DNA of 64,000 nucleotides. Source: Escherichia phage ime. The stretch lies in the sequence record MN850576.1. One strand, written 5' to 3'. Shown piece by piece: positions 15,418 through 52,932 of the stretch. Numbering within the stretch: position 1 is the first letter of the stretch; the number at the start of each line of letters is the position of its first letter. Under the pieces are notes generated by a model. That model did no database searches. It saw nothing but the letters and a program-made list of their open reading frames with translations, and was not told where the DNA came from. The position numbers and the translations under genes were made by a program.

Positions 15418-15546
15418 CACACAATTAGCTGCCAGGCTAAAGTGCTGGAAGCGCACCTATAACACATCTTTCAACTAAATTTCCTACCACCACAATCACT
15501 TACCTCCCACACATGACTGTTTGCTTGTTTAGTGAGCAGTCATGCC

Positions 15547-15574
15547 TTGACATTCTTGCCTATCCTGATAAAAT
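15547..15574 (+). promoter_or_regulatory. sigma70-like promoter reading into ORF-free region
   Basis: TTGACA 15547-15552, TAAAAT 15569-15574; no ORF of 60 aa or more for ~2 kb downstream. Confidence 0.4.
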
Positions 15575-16992
15575 TAAGTTCTTCTCTTTTCTTTTACCGA
15601 GTAATTCGGGTTTTCTGTTCTCTTCGGTTTGAAGGGGTATGGAGATACACCTGAGTGAACAGGGTGAACAACCGAACCATTGGCTATGGCATTAGCATGG
15701 CGAAGCGGACGGGTGACGAAAGAGGGGCCGGAGGACACCAGTCACTGCCATATGGTATATGGGTGATAACCTGAAGAGTCTGAATAAGTGTTTAAGTACC
15801 AGTCAGAGGAAAAGGTGAATGGTAGCCGAAGGGGGAGGGGGGTTTCTTGTATCTTTAATTTGTATATTATGTATACACTTGTAAACCAATCTCATCTGAA
15901 TCTGTTTACCACACAAAGCGGATAGAGACAAATATCACCTATTAAACTTGAATTATTTATAGAAAATACCACAACACCACTTAAGTCTTTGATTTTACAC
16001 ACAAATCCTACAGATATTCAACCTCCATATTTAACATACTTGTAACATATTCCATACTCTACCTGTCTGATCAATCTACCCAACCACATCCTTCATATTT
16101 TCCCTGTCTGTACCACCCCTGCCCCGCCGGGAGTCCCGTCATATCTGGCTTTCCAGTAAATAGCACACCCACAAATATCATTGCCTGAAGAGGGTTTCAT
16201 CCCATAATACATGCCTTACCTGAAGAGCGCTTCATACACCACGTAAATTTTTTAATTGACCTGCAATTTTCCCGTCATGACCCCCCCCCTGCCCCGCCGG
16301 AGAGGTTGGCTTTTCCCACACAGACCTGAAGAGTCAGCCAGAAATATCTGAACAGGTCCAGTTCTGCCTTGTCATGAGCCGTAGCGACTGGAGTGCTGCC
16401 AGGCGGACGGAATGGGAATACTTCTCATTCTTATAATAATTCTCAAATATCGAGGCAGTGAGGCAAATTAATAGGTGAGGCCGTTCACACAGTGGCACAA
16501 CATTTGCAATCTATTTTGTGAGGGTGAATGAGAATACCTATCATTGTGAGAACCTTTATCATTACGGGCAATTTAACATAATACCCATTATGCGCACCAC
16601 TGGCGATACATACAGGGATTGATACCATGAGTTACAGTTTACGCATATAACAATCATATTTCTTACTATTTGTGTGGGATATAGTTAGCAACCAATAGAT
16701 TAGATATTGACCTACAGACTTCCAACCGTCTAGACGTCTAAACGCCCACACACCAAGGGTTATACATACATTACTGAATGTAAACAGGGCCGCAAAAATG
16801 CTACCATACCAGTTTGTAAATTTTTCATGCAGCACTTGACAAAGAGGAGAAAAACTTGTCTGACATAATGTGACCTAACTGACACAACATGACACTTTTA
16901 CACACCTATTAGTTTACACACTGGATTGTTTACATTCCTGATTGTTCACATGCTAACCATTTACATGATTGACTGTTTACACACCGATAATC

Positions 16993-17244
16993 AGCCATGC
17001 CATTCGTTTGCATGACAATAATTATACATGACAATAATCGCACTGATTATAATTAGCATGACATAATATAAAAGCAGGGCAACTATTAGCAGATCTATAG
17101 TTGCCTTGCTTGTTATGTCATGATTAACTAAATACAAGGCAACTATGATCTGATTAATAGTTTGCAGACAAACTATCACGGGGGTGATGGTTACTGCTTT
17201 TATATTATGTCGCGACTCCGTCGCGCCATGCCATTCGTTTGCAT
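16993..17244. repeat. 20-bp direct repeats (GCCATGCCATTCGTTTGCAT) flanking nested inverted repeats; candidate ori/pac
   Basis: Direct repeats at ~16993-17012 and 17225-17244; inverted-repeat arms 17060-17077/17194-17211; palindrome GGCAACTAT-N10-ATAGTTGCC 17078-17105; ATAGTTTG-CAGA-CAAACTAT 17157-17176. Confidence 0.6.
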
Positions 17245-17859
17245 AGTTGCCTTATTGTTACAGATAAAATAATTGTATTGTTAATTATTTCTTATCTTTC
17301 TATTAGTCATCTAATGATTTCAGTTAATATAGTAACGTACAGTAAACATTAGACGACTAAAGATTTCTCTGCTTATGGTAACCTAACGTGACAATTCCAG
17401 ACTGTTTACGAAAAATGTTGACACCTGGGCCGATTTATGTTATGCAGTTTACACGAATAATTATTTTATGCAGGTATTGACTATTCCGTTATTCTATGGT
17501 TGGAATAAATGCTTAGCAGGCTATAGAATGGCGAGCGTACGTAAATTCTGAGATCTGGCGGCTATAGTTATACTCGATTTTTCACGTAGAAAACGCTTTT
17601 GTAGCTATGTAAGTGTATGACTTATAAAGATTTTTAGTTGTTGACAAGATATTGGAGATGTGCATCAGATTAAATTTTGTGCAATAGCTACATTACGTGC
17701 ACTTTTGGAAGAAAAAACGTGTAAAAATGGCCCTGCTACCACACAATGAAAGATTATGCAATAGTTATTTTATATGTATATTTGTACAGTGTGTGGGATT
17801 AATGGCTAGTCAATTATTCCACTTGCCAGGTAGGGCCGTTTATGGTAGGAGAAGAGCAG

Positions 17860-17888
17860 ACAAAAAGAAAGGGGCCTTTAAGCCCCTT
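17860..17888 (-). terminator. rho-independent terminator (minus strand)
   Basis: GGGGC stem-loop; on minus strand followed by TTCTTTTTGT. Confidence 0.55.
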
Positions 17889-17906
17889 GATAATTCAGTT
17901 AAGAAA

Positions 17907-29317: not shown

Positions 29318-29549
29318 CCTCCTTTGGGAACTTGAACTCTGGCATAGCCATATACGCTACAACAGGGTTGTGATCAAAGTAGAACTGACCGTTAATTATC
29401 CCGGTTTTACTCACATAGTTACCAGATCCTGCAAGAACAACCTCGCAAGCTCCGAAATCTACATTGCCATCCTCATCAGCCATGGCTACGATATACTTTC
29501 CTAGAGGCATGTTTTTAACGCCGTCTACAAATGTCCACCCTTTGTTCAT
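29304..29549 (-). CDS. hypothetical protein
   Basis: ORF track. Confidence 0.45.
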   Translation of the reverse strand: MNKGWTFVDGVKNMPLGKYIVAMADEDGNVDFGACEVVLAGSGNYVSKTGIINGQFYFDHNPVVAYMAMPEFKFPKEGADV

Positions 29550-29569
29550 ACTTTATCTCCTGCACTTTT

Positions 29570-29902
29570 TTAAGGTAACCAGTAAACAATCTCGCCTTTC
29601 AGCTTCATGTCGTTTCCAACATAAATTTCCCAGCCATCCATCTTAGCAACTGTAGGCCCAAAGTCATCCGCACCCCTTACCTCTTTCCAGGCTCCGTAGT
29701 CAGGTTGCCAGATATAGAATCCACCTTCTTTGTCCCATGCTCCGTACACTACGTTTAACAGGTTTCCCATTGCAACAATGGTGGGCCGTGGGAATAATAC
29801 ATCTACAGATGCGCCACAATTTCGGGTATCTTTTAAGTTGCAATCCCAAAAGATGTCTGCCAGTGTGGCGGCGATAGCTTTACGTCTTTCCAATGTTACC
29901 AT
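29570..29902 (-). CDS. hypothetical protein
   Basis: ORF track. Confidence 0.5.
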   Translation of the reverse strand: MVTLERRKAIAATLADIFWDCNLKDTRNCGASVDVLFPRPTIVAMGNLLNVVYGAWDKEGGFYIWQPDYGAWKEVRGADDFGPTVAKMDGWEIYVGNDMKLKGEIVYWLP

Positions 29903-29912
29903 GGCACGATAC

Positions 29913-30104
29913 TCACTTGTTGTTAATAAGTTCTAAAACTTTCTGTCTTACTTTGTCAAGGTCTGTTGATTCAAAAACTGTGCGATATCCCCAACTTTGC
30001 CCATAGGAGTGACTGCAATCCCCGTAGCACCATTGCTCAATTTGATAGTATTCAAGGAACGGGTGCTGTCTAACTATGATACCATCCCGGTTAAAAATTA
30101 CCAT
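29913..30104 (-). CDS. hypothetical protein
   Basis: ORF track. Confidence 0.4.
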   Translation of the reverse strand: MVIFNRDGIIVRQHPFLEYYQIEQWCYGDCSHSYGQSWGYRTVFESTDLDKVRQKVLELINNK

Positions 30105-30167
30105 AATACATCGCTCTCTGTTAGTTTATGCGTATATTATACACTGCAGTTTTCAGATGTCAACCTC

Positions 30168-30419
30168 TTACAGATTGCTCCAGTACAATCGGCATTTACA
30201 TTTTTGGCAATGAGGTTCTTTTATGTAATAACCGTCAGTCTTTGGAACACTTTTTGGTGCAGTTTTAATATTGTACCTGGTAAAACATCGGAAGCAGGTT
30301 ACCTCTCCGATCTGTTGATCGTTAATCCACTCGCCAGAGTGAAGCTCTTTCTTGTTTCTCATAATTCTCTTCAAAATCCTCTGCAATCTTATACCAAAAT
30401 CTCCAGCCAGAAAGCACAC
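30168..30419 (-). CDS. Cys-rich zinc-ribbon-like small protein
   Basis: CFRCF...CQKCKC cysteine pairs. Confidence 0.45.
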   Translation of the reverse strand: MCFLAGDFGIRLQRILKRIMRNKKELHSGEWINDQQIGEVTCFRCFTRYNIKTAPKSVPKTDGYYIKEPHCQKCKCRLYWSNL

Positions 30420-30613
30420 GGGAACACTTTGAGGATTGAATCTTTACTTGGCTCGGAAGTTCTTTTTCCGTATGGTAGGTAGAAATACCCTCCTGCAGAT
30501 TCGAATATAGCTCCTTCGGTTGTATCTACCACAGCAAGAATTAAGATTTTAGTCTCCACAGTGCTCCCCTCTCTTAGTTGTTGTGGTGACTATACCATCT
30601 CAAAAACCAGCTG

Positions 30614-31111
30614 TCAACACTTTTTGTACTCCACCACGATAATATCCATATCAAAAGTGGCAAGGTTAATAACGTCCTCTACGTGCTCCCACTTCAAACC
30701 GCCTATGCCGCACCCGATCTTAGGGATGTAGAATGGTAAAGTCGATCCACTGAATACCTCATTGACTAGCTCAAAGCCTTTCAGGATTGAGAAATATTCA
30801 GCATTAGGTCCTGGGTAGAACTGAGTATACAGATTGATTCCGTAGACAATACCTCTCGGAGATAAGTGCTCCCATCGGGAGAACGCACCCAGTTTACTTA
30901 GGCAACCATGTCTGGTCTCTTTGTCAGCTGCCAATGCTTGAGGGAACTCACGGGTAATCTGTTTTGCTATCCCCTTGCCCATTGTGTGGAAGCAGTTACA
31001 ACCGTGGATCAGGTGACCAGCACCACTCTTAAAAAGGGAGATTAAATCTCCCTCTACAGTATCAATAATCACGGTATGCCAGCTCCTCTTCCACAATTTC
31101 AAAAAACTCAT
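30614..31111 (-). CDS. macro-domain protein (ADP-ribose binding/hydrolase family)
   Basis: HGCNCFHTMGKGIA and IPKIGCGIGG motifs; start set at internal Met, uncertain (track ORF extends to 31171). Confidence 0.55.
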   Translation of the reverse strand: MSFLKLWKRSWHTVIIDTVEGDLISLFKSGAGHLIHGCNCFHTMGKGIAKQITREFPQALAADKETRHGCLSKLGAFSRWEHLSPRGIVYGINLYTQFYPGPNAEYFSILKGFELVNEVFSGSTLPFYIPKIGCGIGGLKWEHVEDVINLATFDMDIIVVEYKKC

Positions 31112-31487
31112 CCCAACCTTGTGGCATATTTGAGTTGCCGAAGTGGCTTTCATAGTAAAGGTTCTCACCACTTGGGAGATAGAAATCTGTTACCTCGTAG
31201 AGTCCACAATCGTCGCACTCACCTTCTTCGAACTTGGCCTCAACCTTAATACCTAGGAAGGTGAAAAGTTTATGGATATCTTCAGTTTCGAACTCCCAGC
31301 AGATATTGTTTTCCGCATCGGTGTAGAACTGGATCAGCAGACCATTATCCAGTTTACCAAAATATTCTGTGAAGTAACTACCTTCCCAGAAATCTTTATG
31401 ACAAATAATATCCATGCGCTTGCCCATGATAAAGGTGTGGGCGTTTTGGGCATCGTCACGAATCAGTTTTGGCATTTCATAGATCAT
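31062..31487 (-). CDS. hypothetical protein
   Basis: ORF track. Confidence 0.5.
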   Translation of the reverse strand: MIYEMPKLIRDDAQNAHTFIMGKRMDIICHKDFWEGSYFTEYFGKLDNGLLIQFYTDAENNICWEFETEDIHKLFTFLGIKVEAKFEEGECDDCGLYEVTDFYLPSGENLYYESHFGNSNMPQGWDEFFEIVEEELAYRDY

Positions 31488-31555
31488 CTTAGTTCTCCGG
31501 GTTCAACAGGTGGTGGTGCTACAGGAAGATCATAAAACATAGCTATCACAGTCTC

Positions 31556-31753
31556 TTACACAGGAATTGCTTCAAACAGGCCGTTATCTATACCGTCCTT
31601 CAGATAGAGATTATATTCTATGTCGGTATCTGTATAAAGGGCAGCATCCAGCATTCTATCTGTGAGTCCATCCATTGGGTGGAGAAACCACCACCCACGC
31701 CAGTCAAAGTAACAGCCTGGTGCATCTTCTCTTACACGGATTCGATAAATCAT
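31556..31753 (-). CDS. hypothetical protein
   Basis: ORF track. Confidence 0.4.
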   Translation of the reverse strand: MIYRIRVREDAPGCYFDWRGWWFLHPMDGLTDRMLDAALYTDTDIEYNLYLKDGIDNGLFEAIPV

Positions 31754-31849
31754 GGGCAGTGGCCTCCTGTTAGTTATACATCCCAGTTTTCTTCGTTCAT
31801 CACGTCCTCCCGTTCTATGAAGTTATAATTGCACACCTTTCCACCTGTG

Positions 31850-32266
31850 TCAACAGAAAACTTCAACAAATTCTTCCACAGTTTTAATGTCGTGTGAAAA
31901 AGGTTTACGGCTATAACGGGCAATAGCACTATCAACCACCGCCCGGTACTCCAAATCTTCAGAATATTTCATGAAGCATTGCAGCGTCTCTGGGCAGATA
32001 GCTAAATAGCTCCACCACCCCTCTTCAGATTGGTAGTCGAATCCCATACTCTCCAACCATGAAGCATATACGCCTGCACCCTCAAGCCAGTGAGTATTTT
32101 CATCCAGAAACTTGTTAATAGACATGTGAGCTTCTAAGCATTTATCCAGCTCTTTTCCGTTAACCAGCCACGCACTGACCGTGGCGCATCCAAAGTCTAC
32201 AGATTGAGTTGACAGGTTGTATTGGTCATAGTTCTCAGGTTTAACAATGATATCTTCTAATGTCAT
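31850..32266 (-). CDS. hypothetical protein
   Basis: ORF track. Confidence 0.5.
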   Translation of the reverse strand: MTLEDIIVKPENYDQYNLSTQSVDFGCATVSAWLVNGKELDKCLEAHMSINKFLDENTHWLEGAGVYASWLESMGFDYQSEEGWWSYLAICPETLQCFMKYSEDLEYRAVVDSAIARYSRKPFSHDIKTVEEFVEVFC

Positions 32267-32328
32267 TTTTCAGATCTCCTTATACAAAAATGCCCCACCC
32301 TTTCGGGCAGGGCTATGTTAACTAGATG

Positions 32329-33555
32329 TTAGAATGGGATGTCATCATCAAAGGCGTACTGTGCTGGATTCTGATCCATCGGGTCATCTTCCTCGTCATT
32401 TACAGGAGGAGCGTCTACAGTATTTTGCTGTGAAGCAGCTTCCTGTTTGGCAGCTTGAGGTTCTTGATGGTCAGTGGACCCAGCACCGTTCTTGATCCAA
32501 TCGTACAACGGCTCAGCCAGATTAGTCAAGACATCTTTTGCTTCTGCAGTAATTGCCGCTGCAAAATCATCAACTTTCGTTTTCTTGTCAATACGGCGAC
32601 AAGCGTTCAACACCGCATTACCGACACTGGCACCTACTTCATCTTCAGTTCGGTTGGTGGCTTGAGCATACTCTTTCTTAAGCTCAATAGTGACTACGTG
32701 CAGTGTTTTAGCCACACCTAGTGGGTCGTCTACCTTAAACCCGCGATCCAGGATGATTTGCAACGCATTGATGCTATGTCCCGTCTCCACACCAATAGGG
32801 TCGTAAGAGGATTTACGCTTGCCACCAGAGCCTTGAGTGCCGTTCTCTGCCTTAGGTGGATAGGCTTTGAAACCACTGATAATGTTTCCGGTGTCTTTGT
32901 CAACAATGGCTGCAACACGACCACCTACCACCAGGTCTTTAAGCTGCTCATCAGTAACAACCATGGCACCTTCGCCAATCTTGTGGTCATTAACAGTAAC
33001 CACGTTGCCAACAATCTGAGTCACATCGCCATAGATGCGTAAAACGTCCTGATTGGCATTCTGCTGAGGTTTCTGCTTCTGGCCTTGTGATTGTGCACCT
33101 TGTTGCTGTTTTTGCTGCTGAGTCGCTGCTGGAGCCTCTCCTGCACCCAGCTTGACCATCTTAGCCAGTGAGCCTTTGTAATAGGTCTTACCGTTATGCT
33201 CGTTTGCCTTCAAAGGGATATTTACGATCCATCCCGGCGTTACGGTTTCCCACTTGTCATCAATCTTAACAGAGACAGAGTCTTGATGACCAGGTTTAAG
33301 CAGCTTATCACCCATACTGATCCAAACTTCTTCACCACCTTGAAGCAGGTTATCAGAGGAATCCAGTTCAGAAATCAGTAAAGAGATGGTGTGGCTGGAT
33401 TCAATTTTCTTACCTTGCCACACAGTGGTTTTAATACCTGTTGTAGGATCAGCACCTTTGATAGGTTTGATGCTGACACGTTTAATCATGCCGTGAGCCA
33501 GTAAAACAGTTTCACGCGGATTCATCGGGTTAGCGAATTGTTGAATAACGCTCAT
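32329..33555 (-). CDS. putative ssDNA-binding/replisome protein with host-SSB-like acidic C-terminal tail
   Basis: C-terminus ...AFDDDIPF matches the E. coli SSB tail; Q-rich linker. Confidence 0.55.
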   Translation of the reverse strand: MSVIQQFANPMNPRETVLLAHGMIKRVSIKPIKGADPTTGIKTTVWQGKKIESSHTISLLISELDSSDNLLQGGEEVWISMGDKLLKPGHQDSVSVKIDDKWETVTPGWIVNIPLKANEHNGKTYYKGSLAKMVKLGAGEAPAATQQQKQQQGAQSQGQKQKPQQNANQDVLRIYGDVTQIVGNVVTVNDHKIGEGAMVVTDEQLKDLVVGGRVAAIVDKDTGNIISGFKAYPPKAENGTQGSGGKRKSSYDPIGVETGHSINALQIILDRGFKVDDPLGVAKTLHVVTIELKKEYAQATNRTEDEVGASVGNAVLNACRRIDKKTKVDDFAAAITAEAKDVLTNLAEPLYDWIKNGAGSTDHQEPQAAKQEAASQQNTVDAPPVNDEEDDPMDQNPAQYAFDDDIPF

Positions 33556-35251: not shown

Positions 35252-35280
35252 ATTATATTAGGCCCTATCACTGTTGTCAA
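35252..35280 (-). promoter_or_regulatory. sigma70-like promoter (minus strand; TTGACA-17-TATAAT)
   Basis: Plus-strand TGTCAA 35275-35280 and ATTATA 35252-35257; -10 sits in loop of TAGGGCC/GGCCCTA inverted repeat. Confidence 0.5.
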
Positions 35281-51747: not shown

Positions 51748-52932
51748 TTAAGCTTTAGCCAAAATGGCGCTAAACTCTTCACCAAACTCTTTTACAATCT
51801 TCATCAGGTTTGGGTATGCTTTGATCAGCTGAGCAACAATCTTGTCACGCCCTTTACCGATAAGCAAGGCATTTCCTAAGGCATTAGGTTTCATCATCGC
51901 CATAAAGACTGAGAATACAAAATCTCGGTTCTCGTCCTTGAAGTTTTCCCAAAGGAAATCGAGGAAGTTTGCCACGCAGCTGACAAGATCTTCGTCTGAG
52001 ATACTTGCATTTTCCATCATATTGCGAATAGCGATACAACCTTCAGATCCAAGAATCCACAAAATGTCTGGCTGCTTAGGACCTACGTATTCTTTGCAGC
52101 CACCTGCCATAATCCGACCGATTTCCGGTAAATTACGTTTCTTGGTGTGGTAAGTCCAGATCTCTACCGCTGCAGTGTGACCAATAGCACCTTGTAGAAG
52201 AACACGGGCCATAGCGTCAGAAATAATACCGCTGTCAAAATCGTGCAAGATGTCAGATGCAGCAACCCAAGATCGTGGTGTGGCAAAAGATGGACAATTA
52301 ATCTCAGCCATAGCCTCATAATTATCAATAGCTGATGGAACTCTTTTCAGATACCCAATTACAGAGGAGTGAACCCCGTTGAGGAATGCGTAGTCCTCAA
52401 TAAACACCTCTGCATTGCTTGTAACCTCTACAATGATAAAACGGTTAGCCAGAGGGGCTTCGAGCGCCGAAAGAACCGCACCATCTGTAGAACGGTTACC
52501 CGCAGCCACAAAAACAGAACCCTTAGGGAATGCATAGGTGCCGCACTTGTGGTCAAGCATAATTTGCATTGCAACCTTTTGCAGGTAGTTATCTGCATGA
52601 GTGAGCTCATCCAGAAAGATAATTCCGCTCCAGTCAGGATCCGCAGGCCAAAATTCTGGAATTGCAAACACTGTACGTGTAGTTCCATCCGCTTCTACAG
52701 GGATAGGTAGCCCAGATAAGTCGGCAGGATCTTTATCTGACAGTCGCACGTCAACAAGGTTGTCATCTCGCTCACCGAACATATTATCAGCGATCTGCTT
52801 CATCACCTGGCTTTTACCCACACCCATTGGTCCCAAAATTAGGACAGATCGGCTATGACGTTGGGCAAACTGAATAATAGCTGGCAACTCACGGACAGTG
52901 ATTTGACCACTTTCGAATACGTTTCTTGACAT
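51748..52932 (-). CDS. AAA+ ATPase, MoxR-like
   Basis: Walker A GPMGVGKS, Walker B IIFLDEL. Confidence 0.7.
   Translation of the reverse strand: MSRNVFESGQITVRELPAIIQFAQRHSRSVLILGPMGVGKSQVMKQIADNMFGERDDNLVDVRLSDKDPADLSGLPIPVEADGTTRTVFAIPEFWPADPDWSGIIFLDELTHADNYLQKVAMQIMLDHKCGTYAFPKGSVFVAAGNRSTDGAVLSALEAPLANRFIIVEVTSNAEVFIEDYAFLNGVHSSVIGYLKRVPSAIDNYEAMAEINCPSFATPRSWVAASDILHDFDSGIISDAMARVLLQGAIGHTAAVEIWTYHTKKRNLPEIGRIMAGGCKEYVGPKQPDILWILGSEGCIAIRNMMENASISDEDLVSCVANFLDFLWENFKDENRDFVFSVFMAMMKPNALGNALLIGKGRDKIVAQLIKAYPNLMKIVKEFGEEFSAILAKA

Follow-up and report, generated by a model that had tools for sequence, protein, structure and literature searches.

The window analysed here, a stretch of 64,000 nucleotides from Escherichia phage ime (sequence record MN850576.1), encodes on its minus strand, at 30614..31072, a stand-alone macrodomain protein. 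Judged by its sequence, the protein is a member of the T4 Tk.4 / AdfM family, and its modelled fold is that of the ALC1-like class of ADP-ribosyl hydrolases, which includes TARG1, DarG, SCO6735 and Poa1p. It is likely, at a probability of about 0.7, that the protein works as an orphan-antitoxin-like hydrolase and erases DarT2 marks from the single-stranded DNA of the phage. The gene is already annotated, and the role of the Tk.4 family has recently been published; a full-text literature search found no paper on a Vequintavirus macrodomain. The rV5-like phages are candidates for the biocontrol of E. coli O157, and a probable anti-DarTG2 factor helps to predict their host range on strains carrying DarTG2. 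Of wider interest is the glutamine that invariably occupies, throughout the Tk.4 family, the position of the catalytic lysine of DarG and TARG1. The family also bears on the generality of the lysine-independent mechanism that has been proposed for SCO6735.

The gene and its start codon

The first-pass annotation had placed the gene at 30614-31171. An open reading frame of this extent exists and is the longest possible one in the ORF list (185 aa, GTG start), but it lies on the minus strand, and the true CDS is shorter, with 152 aa and a stop codon at 30614..31072. This CDS is supported by Pfam, PHROG, AlphaFold2 and GenBank. The start codon had been called uncertain, and rightly so, as the GTG at 31070..31072 (minus strand) is better supported than the longer starts. 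The minus-strand sequence leading into it is ATTGTGGAAGAGGAGCTGGCATACC-GTG. Here, a GAGGAG Shine-Dalgarno motif (31083..31088, minus strand) is found 10 nt upstream of the GTG, within the 3' end of the upstream gene. The homologues, including the Tk.4 proteins of T4 and RB49, all start at the same position with M-I-I/V, and the GTG is kept in KP869102. Further, an identical 459-nt CDS has been annotated in four near-identical GenBank genomes, namely KP869102, PP488543, LR699804 and PV435126. Since the N-termini of the homologues, the GAGGAG motif and the four annotations agree, GTG 31072 is the best-supported start.

Three longer starts, GTG 31171, ATG 31153 and ATG 31111, were considered and rejected. 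None of them is preceded by a comparable Shine-Dalgarno motif, the extension is missing from every homologue, and these starts are not used in any annotation. The 33-codon upstream extension of the maximal ORF (31073..31171, minus strand) has no counterpart in the homologues, and the annotations begin at 31072. It probably represents the 3' end of the neighbouring gene read in another frame and is not translated as part of the macrodomain protein. The window is 97% identical to published rV5-like Vequintavirus genomes, in which the CDS is named macro domain protein, O-acetyl-ADP-ribose deacetylase or phosphatase.

Fold, family and active site

A macro domain had been proposed from the letters alone, with the absence of a macro-domain HMM hit named as the refuting outcome. 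The HMM search returned Pfam Macro (PF01661) above its gathering score, at 27.7 bits (cut-off 22; E 2.7e-6), and the macrodomain fold is predicted with high confidence; the identification is thereby upheld. PF01661 is also precomputed for many of the homologues, of which 84 were found in the databases, and the protein matches PHROG 335 at about 1.1e-58; chance similarity on this scale is not to be expected. The AlphaFold2 model (pLDDT 96.5, pTM 0.91) has, together with its Foldseek matches, the three-layer alpha/beta/alpha architecture of macrodomains. Foldseek retrieved 177 PDB chains at E <= 0.001, and nearly all of the top 50 are either macrodomains or designed serine hydrolases that use a macrodomain scaffold. 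The best 18 PDB matches are exclusively TARG1, Poa1p or DarG, with BT1257 and SCO6735 appearing within the top 24; these five match at E values of 3e-10 to 8e-7 and TM scores of 0.69-0.79. When the family profile was compared with PDB sequences, M. tuberculosis DarG (3e-17), BT1257, TARG1, SCO6735, T. aquaticus DarG and Poa1p were recovered. At E <= 0.01, 15 of the 16 matching sequences are ALC1-like proteins, the remaining and far weaker one being the hypothetical protein TTHA0132 (E 7.5e-5). No entry named MacroD or YmdB is present among these 16. By structure and by sequence, the closest relatives are thus ALC1-like and not of the MacroD, PARG, macroH2A or Macro2 types.

The closest characterized relative is found in T4. 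Its Tk.4 (NP_049723) shares 39% identity with the window protein (E 4e-41, residues 1-150 against 1-152), and the Tk.4 of RB49 shares 68%. Both the T4 protein and the window protein are stand-alone macrodomains of about 152-155 aa. They have in common HGCNCFHTMG-G-A, NLYTQF-PGPN and P-IG-GIG, and with these the Gln that stands in for the catalytic Lys. The motif set of the family, HGCNC, MGxGxA, NLYTQ and PxIGxGxG, is thus present in the window protein. The genomic setting is different, as the T4 gene belongs to a vs - tk.4 - tk cluster, whereas the window gene lies downstream of the replication module. By tblastn, homologues were found in 2,719 of 50,697 phage records (~5%), many of them annotated as tk.4, phosphatase or macro domain; in RB49, JS10, Bp7 and EspM4VN, the matches fall under features annotated as tk.4.

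The first-pass annotation had pointed to two motifs as hallmarks of macro domains, and both are present in the translation. The first, HGCNCFHTMGKGIA, spans H23-A36 (codons 30965..31006, minus strand) and forms loop 1, with Asn26 (30995..30997) and a GxG. This loop should hold the distal ribose and the diphosphate. Conservation was counted over the non-gap residues of 226 family members, mostly <50% identical to one another; N26 is found in 225 of 225, and G24, G34 and A36 are each found in 224 of 225. In the profile-to-PDB and MAFFT alignments, N26 corresponds to Asn27 of SCO6735, to the Asn of DarG and to N23 of PhiKZ gp104, the residue mutated in the N23A construct (PMC13309987). The second motif, IGCGIGG (I119-G125, 30698..30718, minus strand), is the glycine-rich phosphate-binding loop 2. 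It aligns with LGVGNGG of DarG, IGCGLAG of BT1257 and SCO6735 and IGCGLDR of TARG1, and its G120 and G122 are almost invariant among the 226 members. HGCN...MGKGIA and IGCGIGG together match the ADP-ribose-binding loops of DarG, TARG1 and SCO6735.

Between the two loops lies NLYTQ (N80-Q84, 30821..30835, minus strand), with Gln84 encoded at 30821..30823. By the same alignments, Gln84 falls on the catalytic Lys of both DarG (K80) and TARG1 (K84), and it coincides with Gln85 of SCO6735. It is conserved in all 222 non-gap members, and N80 in all 223. The canonical catalytic Lys being absent, it may be asked whether the protein is a catalyst at all. It could instead serve as a sponge for ADP-ribose derivatives, such as Thoeris-type signals, or as a stoichiometric inhibitor that binds DarT2. 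Some macrodomains are readers only, and the catalytically dead Q85A form of SCO6735 still inhibits DarT via interaction (PMC9411070). However, the equivalent Gln is catalytically essential in SCO6735 (PMC9411070), and the invariance of Gln84, Asn26 and Asn80 across 226 members of mostly <50% identity argues for a conserved active site. Moreover, the matches to DarG cover its macro part only, and nothing in the protein resembles in sequence the C-terminal domain by which DarG binds DarT. A non-catalytic role is, therefore, very improbable.

Among the structurally known relatives, DarG is the nearest in sequence, its M. tuberculosis form (5M3I) being the best PDB match to the family profile. The fold agrees with TM scores of 0.74-0.78 (5M3I and the T. 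aquaticus 5M31/5M3E), the loops are equal in length and GxGxGGL of loop 2 is shared. Unlike DarG, the window protein has neither the C-terminal DarT-binding domain nor an adjacent darT, and the catalytic Lys80 (PTK motif) of T. aquaticus DarG is replaced by Gln84. The NCBIfam profile antitoxin_DarG (NF048014) was matched with 47.8 bits against a cut-off of 250 (E 1.2e-12), over profile positions 3-141 of 338, and the PADLOC DarG profile (6e-14) in its macrodomain part only. The protein was, therefore, not taken to be a DarG, as the score is far below the NCBIfam cut-off, the C-terminal domain and the darT neighbour are missing, and a Gln stands for the Lys.

The active site is more closely resembled by SCO6735 and BT_1257 (5E3B, 2FG1), which are likewise stand-alone ALC1-like proteins with a Gln at the catalytic-Lys position and a stabilising Asn (N27). 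Their identity to the window protein is, however, only about 25-28%, and the mobile loop following their Gln is 5 residues longer; the window protein has a loop of DarG/TARG1 length, seen as a 5-column gap in the alignment. SCO6735 has Val25 (HVCN) where the window protein has Gly24 (HGCN) in place of the Val or Ile looked for. Since the role of Val25 has been assigned to its backbone carbonyl (PMC9411070), Gly24 does not exclude an SCO6735-like mechanism. Human TARG1/OARD1 (4J5R/4J5S), a member of the same class, is the top Foldseek match (E 3e-10, TM 0.78), but its Lys84/Asp125 dyad corresponds to Gln84/Gly in the window protein.

Yeast Poa1p (6LFR) also shares the class and is matched by Foldseek at E 1e-9; it differs in being a small-molecule phosphatase with extra insertions. 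A housekeeping role can be derived from this likeness, in which the protein would process small ADP-ribose metabolites, as a Poa1p-like ADP-ribose-1''-phosphate phosphatase or an O-acetyl-ADP-ribose deacetylase, and would clear the by-products of RNA repair or sirtuins. Poa1p structures are indeed among the best matches in fold and sequence, the GenBank and PHROG names (phosphatase, deacetylase; compare the historical 'A1pp' and 'OAADPr deacetylase') point the same way, and a survey argues that many phage macrodomains may favour soluble ADP-ribose derivatives (PMC9503650). Nevertheless, these names have been transferred by homology, and Poa1p is the lowest-scoring ALC1-like match to the family profile. 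Pfam detected no KptA/Tpt1, sirtuin or other NAD-pathway domain among the 44 ORFs of the window that were scanned. The only known phenotype of the family is the DarTG2 sensitivity of T4 delta-tk.4, considered below, the gene being dispensable on K-12. Taken with these points, small-metabolite processing appears quite unlikely.

Probable reversal of DarT2 marks

The first-pass annotation had suggested that a phage macro domain could reverse a host toxin or defence based on ADP-ribosylation, and this idea is supported by the T4 homologue acting against DarTG2; for the window protein, it is inferred. The evidence comes from a 2025 preprint, in which tk.4 of T4 was renamed adfM, for anti-DarT factor Macrodomain (bioRxiv 10.1101/2025.11.20.689424). 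In the HIDEN-SEQ screen of T4 on a DarTG2 host, tk.4 alone reached significance, and it is the only T4 gene to become conditionally essential there. A clean knockout of tk.4 sensitised T4 to DarTG2, and the gene was non-essential on K-12. The removal of ADP-ribose by Tk.4 is put forward there as a proposal, the support in T4 being genetic. The V5-like phage Bas54 was also used in the HIDEN-SEQ study, in which no result for Bas54 on DarTG2 was found.

The biochemical evidence comes from related enzymes. SCO6735 of Streptomyces coelicolor is efficient in taking thymidine-linked ADP-ribose off DNA and can rescue cells from DarT; activity is lost on mutation to Q85A or N27S (PMC9411070). Thymidine ADP-ribosylation was reversed by every ALC1-like enzyme tested, i.e., DarG, TARG1 and SCO6735 (PMC9411070). 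By analogy with T4 Tk.4 and SCO6735, the Vequintavirus protein may be assigned the same substrate and role. The protein would be expressed from the minus-strand block that also holds the replication genes, and ADP-ribose would be bound between loop 1 and loop 2. Hydrolysis would then break the N-glycosidic bond that joins ADP-ribose to thymine on the single-stranded phage DNA. In this way, the marks set by the DarT2 of host DarTG2 systems would be erased and replication could proceed, the phage carrying, in effect, an orphan antitoxin. Catalysis would be independent of a lysine, with Gln84, held by Asn26, positioning the distal ribose in the manner of Gln85 and Asn27 of SCO6735. This mechanism is an extrapolation, because both the catalytic lysine of DarG and the longer mobile loop of SCO6735 are absent. 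The identity to T4 Tk.4, only 39% as given above, counts against the reading.

The name AdfM has also been given to gp104 of PhiKZ, which strips DarT2 ADP-ribose from DNA in vitro and protects the phage (Cell Rep 2026, PMC13309987). Like the window protein, gp104 is a stand-alone ALC1-like macrodomain of a phage, with the loop-1 Asn and a glycine-rich loop 2. However, the identity between the two is 21% over 127 columns (E 2e-5), gp104 keeps the DarG-type FPTK with its catalytic lysine where the window protein has NLYTQ, and it is imported into the phage nucleus, a structure that the rV5-like phages do not have. On account of these three differences, gp104 is a separate lineage with only the name in common. 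Phage NADARs, one of them in other Vequintavirinae, likewise remove the marks and protect the phage in the case of DarTG1, but not of DarTG2 (PMC11825919).

ALC1-like enzymes are also known to act on Glu/Asp-linked protein ADP-ribose, uracil-ADP-ribose RNA and small molecules (PMC9411070, PMC13036486), and therefore the substrate range cannot be read from the sequence. TARG1 and SCO6735 hydrolyse Glu/Asp-ADP-ribosylated proteins (PMC9411070), and uracil-ADP-ribose in RNA is reversed by TARG1, DarG and SCO6735 (PMC13036486). The window protein might thus be an eraser of other macromolecular marks, be it on Glu/Asp residues of proteins, on uracil in RNA, or those set by other host ART toxins or the phage's own ADP-ribosyltransferases, with DarT2 as one target at most. 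The presence of the family in ~5% of phage records is maybe wider than an answer to DarTG2 alone predicts. Against this stands the T4 screen, in which tk.4 was specific to DarTG2. The mRNA ADP-ribosyltransferase CmdT restricts T4 strongly even though the phage carries tk.4 (PMC11618068), and therefore the CmdT mark is evidently not erased. Nor was an ART domain found in the 44 window ORFs scanned. Such a role is thus considered rather unlikely beside the erasure of DarT2 marks.

The Tk.4 family combines loops of DarG length with the Gln/Asn active site of the SCO6735 type, and its NxYTQ is absolutely invariant. It can be speculated, with considerable doubt, that the family forms a branch of its own among the ALC1-like enzymes, borne by phages, of the Gln type and with a lysine-independent mechanism. 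Its substrates would then be broader than those of DarG (e.g., thymidine-ADPr DNA together with uracil-ADPr RNA, or the marks of undescribed ART toxins). This broader range, if true, would explain the carriage of the family by ~5% of sequenced phages. On the same supposition, the Vequintavirus copy would be a recently exchanged counter-defence cassette, its identity being 68% to the Tk.4 of RB49 and 39% to that of T4.

Neighbouring genes and transcription

The macrodomain gene is flanked by two uncharacterised small genes. The upstream one (31062..31487, minus strand, from the ORF list) encodes an acidic protein of 141 aa with a pI of 4.2, which matches PHROG 8157 (1.8e-80) and has no Pfam match. 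An overlap of about 50 nt with this neighbour had been noted earlier; that figure corresponds to ATG 31111, and with the start at 31072 the overlap shrinks to 11 nt. Such an overlap suggests that the two genes are co-transcribed and translationally coupled. The pairing is not kept outside the genus, as the gene upstream of tk.4 in T4 and RB49 is vs. The possibility that the 141-aa protein mimics the C-terminal domain of DarG was considered and dropped, given that it has PHROG 8157 as its only match, none in Pfam, and that T4 and RB49 lack this pairing.

None of the flanking ORFs has an ART domain. Pfam gave no match for the upstream ORF or for one of the two downstream ORFs, and for the second downstream ORF only a phage zinc-binding domain. 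The Pfam scan of 44 window ORFs, besides the absences given above, returned no NADAR, NAD-salvage or other NAD-pathway domain. AdfN, the NADAR of the Vequintavirinae Bas60-62, was not detected among these ORFs. Scans of the window for tRNA genes and against Rfam gave no match.

The macrodomain gene is situated downstream of the replication genes, within a long minus-strand block. By its match to the consensus, a candidate sigma-70-like promoter (TTGACA-17-AATTAT, extended TG) was located at 31825..31853 (minus strand). It could drive a 65-aa ORF, the 141-aa ORF and the macrodomain gene. Upstream, the nearest intrinsic terminator is found at 32313..32292 (minus strand) and has a 9-bp stem with 7 GC pairs, followed by a T-run. 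In the block as a whole, 34 sigma-70-like promoter matches were counted against 19.3 +/- 4.7 expected, and 24 of the 34 are on the minus strand. The label of an early-gene block, given earlier to this location, is plausible.

Boundaries of the macrodomain gene

The macrodomain gene of the window lies on the minus strand at 30614..31072 and encodes a protein of 152 aa. The first-pass annotation had placed it at 30614-31171, with no strand given. As per the ORF list, an open frame of this extent does exist on the minus strand (185 aa from GTG), and its translation carries both of the motifs pointed out earlier, HGCNCFHTMGKGIA and IGCGIGG; the 5' boundary, however, was too generous. There are four candidate starts in this frame, namely GTG 31171, ATG 31153, ATG 31111 and GTG 31072. 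A Shine-Dalgarno sequence, AAGAGGAG, which ends 10 nt before the start codon, is found for GTG 31072 but for none of the other three. From this codon alone does the protein begin with M-I-I-D-T-V-E-G-D-L, in agreement with the N-terminus of every full-length homologue. The same 459-nt CDS is annotated in four near-identical GenBank genomes. Thus, the gene is assigned to 30614..31072. With its first 11 nt it runs over the stop of the upstream gene, 31062..31487 (-); the earlier figure of about 50 nt for this overlap matches ATG 31111 instead and has to be given up.

Class, family and active site of the protein

The earlier recognition of a macro domain is borne out by the HMM search, in which Pfam Macro scores 27.7 bits over a gathering cut-off of 22. 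PHROG 335 matches with an E-value of 1e-58. The PADLOC DarG (6e-14) and NCBIfam antitoxin_DarG (1.2e-12) profiles also match, both covering the macrodomain part only. An AlphaFold2 model from 51 homologues has a mean pLDDT of 96.5 and a pTM of 0.91. When this model was compared with the PDB through Foldseek, TARG1 came out on top (E 3e-10, TM 0.78), followed by Poa1p and the DarG macrodomains of T. aquaticus and M. tuberculosis and, a few ranks down, by BT_1257 and SCO6735; viral and MacroD-type macrodomains rank below these ALC1-like ones. The family profile retrieves the same set from PDB sequences (E 3e-17 to 1e-13). PMC9411070 groups TARG1, Poa1p, DarG, BT_1257 and SCO6735 as the ALC1-like class. 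Judged from profiles and the predicted fold, the window protein is almost certainly an ADP-ribose-binding macrodomain of this class. It belongs to the Macro superfamily, ALC1-like class, and therein to the family of Tk.4 (AdfM), the T4 macrodomain.

T4 Tk.4 (NP_049723) is 39% identical to the protein over its whole length (E 4e-41), whereas RB49 Tk.4 is 68% identical; the loci compared are 30614-31072 (-) in the window, L006:3001-3453 in RB49 and L005:5926-6390 in T4. The closeness of the Krischvirus RB49, as against T4, suggests horizontal exchange between unrelated E. coli myovirus lineages. By tblastn, homologues occur in 2,719 of 50,697 phage records. The feature is named tk.4 in T-even and related phages (RB49, 67.5%; JS10, Bp7 and others, ~40-44%), and other carriers include 86-92 kb Escherichia, Salmonella and Pseudomonas phages, ~155-160 kb Salmonella and Escherichia phages and many more. 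An exhaustive profile search gave 1,267 clusters (50% identity) at E <= 1e-30, and the best 150 of these are almost all stand-alone proteins of ~145-190 aa.

The active-site columns were taken from three agreeing alignments (single-sequence, profile-to-PDB and MAFFT). Among the non-gap residues of 226 family sequences, Asn26 (225/225), Asn80 (223/223), Gln84 (222/222) and Gly120 (222/222) are invariant, and His23 is present in 221 of 225. Gln84, in the motif NLYTQ, shares its column with the catalytic lysine of DarG (K80, FPTK) and TARG1 (K84, ITK), as well as with Gln85 of SCO6735 and BT_1257 (NMIGQ). In SCO6735 of Streptomyces coelicolor, the Q85A change abolishes activity, and N27S, which removes the Gln-holding Asn, nearly does so; neither DarG nor TARG1 is as fast as this enzyme in removing ADP-ribose linked to thymidine (PMC9411070). 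The window protein has the same catalytic pair, N26 and Q84, but not the loop signature: SCO6735 has a longer mobile loop and Val25, whereas here the loop after the Gln is of DarG length and a Gly occupies that site. T4 Tk.4 is identical in NLYTQF. Owing to the Gln84/N26 pair and the DarG-length loop, the members of the Tk.4 family are classed from their sequences as ALC1-like macrodomains of Gln type whose architecture resembles that of DarG. The invariant Gln/Asn pair also makes it very improbable that the protein acts without catalysis, as a sponge or a DarT binder.

The protein is not DarG itself. Its score of 47.8 bits is far below the cut-off of 250, and the protein lacks the C-terminal domain, a darT neighbour and the catalytic Lys. 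Similarly, it does not belong to the lineage of PhiKZ gp104, a Lys-type protein with which it shares 21% identity. PhiKZ gp104, separately named AdfM, removes DarT2 marks in vitro and protects PhiKZ (PMC13309987). The name thus covers two distantly related lineages, the other being the Gln-type T4 tk.4 (bioRxiv 10.1101/2025.11.20.689424), and is a source of annotation confusion.

Probable counter-defence against DarTG2

DarTG2 is a defence system that tags DNA with ADP-ribose. A 2025 preprint (bioRxiv 10.1101/2025.11.20.689424) reports that, in T4 transposon sequencing, tk.4 was the sole significant gene to become necessary on a DarTG2-expressing host, and that its clean deletion rendered T4 sensitive to the system. 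On E. coli K-12 it is dispensable, with 45 of 46 TA sites disrupted. The authors of the preprint named the gene adfM and put forward the removal of DarT2's ADP-ribose from DNA as a proposal without an enzyme assay. A matching role against DarTG1 is known for phage NADAR proteins, which are inactive on DarTG2; one such anti-DarTG1 protein was found in the Vequintavirinae Bas60-62 (PMC11825919).

By homology, the Vequintavirus copy would have the same substrate and role. The protein would be made during infection, bind ADP-ribose between its two glycine-rich loops and hydrolyse the thymine-ADP-ribose bond written by DarT2 on single-stranded phage DNA. Erasure of these marks would restore the replication templates, and the protein would therefore serve as an orphan-antitoxin-like counter-defence. 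A probability of about 0.7 is given to this mechanism. The present analysis establishes the domain and its fold, the class and family of the protein and the conservation of its catalytic residues; what is known of the T4 phenotype, and of how DarG, TARG1 and SCO6735 work chemically, is taken from the literature. The earlier guess, reversal of a host ADP-ribosylation defence, was a good one.

In rV5-like records, the CDS is variously named 'macro domain protein', 'O-acetyl-ADP-ribose deacetylase', 'phosphatase' and 'T4-like protein with Macro domain, Poa1p-like'. Small-molecule processing, as an Appr1p phosphatase or OAADPr deacetylase, is what the old names imply, and Poa1p is indeed a good structural match; nevertheless, those names were carried over by homology, the sole known phenotype is DarTG2-specific, and a Pfam scan of 44 window ORFs found no RNA-repair or sirtuin partner, which leaves this role unlikely. 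Somewhat less doubtful, though still improbable, is action on a different or wider set of macromolecules: Glu/Asp-ADP-ribose proteins and uracil-ADP-ribose RNA are among the substrates of ALC1-like enzymes too, yet the mRNA ADP-ribosyltransferase CmdT restricts T4 even though this phage carries tk.4. Near-identical public genomes already carry an annotation of the gene, and the family role is published; the corrected boundaries and the Gln-type nature of the family are the additions made here.

Genome setting and neighbouring loci

Over 3 kb around the gene, more than 100 Vequintavirus (rV5-like) genomes match at 95-97% identity, the best of them being E. coli O157 typing phage 4 (97.0%). The long minus-strand block that houses the gene also holds the DNA polymerase, primase-helicase, a second helicase and rIIA/rIIB, after which come dozens of small unannotated genes. 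Sigma-70-like promoter matches number 34 between 27.5 and 38 kb, where 19.3 +/- 4.7 are expected; the minus strand has 24 of the 34. A strong intrinsic terminator is present at 32313..32292. By sequence, this enrichment and the terminator would suit transcription by the host RNA polymerase in the early or middle phase.

Three perfect or near-perfect sigma-70 consensus matches are present on the coding strand, at 30136-30163 (-), 35252-35280 (-) and 30589-30617 (-). Two are TTGACA-16/17-TATAAT with 12/12 matches; the third, TTGACA-17-TATAGT with an extended TG, overlaps the macrodomain stop codon and would drive the next small gene. The small downstream ORF at 30168-30419 (-), for which relatives annotate a shorter CDS of 195 nt, matches Pfam Phage_zn_bind_2 (PF23903, 72.7 bits). 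Three genes upstream of the macrodomain gene, a 408-aa protein at 32329-33555 (-), with no match in the Pfam scan, ends in FDDDIPF. An acidic tip of this type is that of E. coli SSB, where it recruits SSB-interacting proteins. Probably, the 408-aa protein either is the phage's own single-stranded DNA-binding protein or imitates the SSB tail.

Further away, the region 15,450-17,900, between the plus-strand and minus-strand blocks, is gene-poor. GC drops to 0.33 there between 17.0 and 17.7 kb, and the GC skew changes sign. At 17060-17260, AAGCAGGGCAACTAT / ATAGTTGCC recur as nested repeats, both inverted and direct, with perfect 18-nt arms at 17060-17077 and 17194-17211; the tRNA and Rfam scans of the window gave no match. 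A replication origin or a hub of divergent promoters may lie at this locus.

The 394-aa ORF at 51748-52932 (-) corresponds to the 'MoxR ATPase' gene annotated in PV435126. According to the HIDEN-SEQ preprint, the MoxR ATPase of the V5-like phage Bas54 (bas54_0063) is needed against the predicted defence system DS-28. Lastly, 16 unannotated 'Campylobacter phage' records with Campylobacter jejuni as host (e.g. MG065661, MG065682) are ~96.6% identical to 29500-32500; mislabelling or contamination seems likely.
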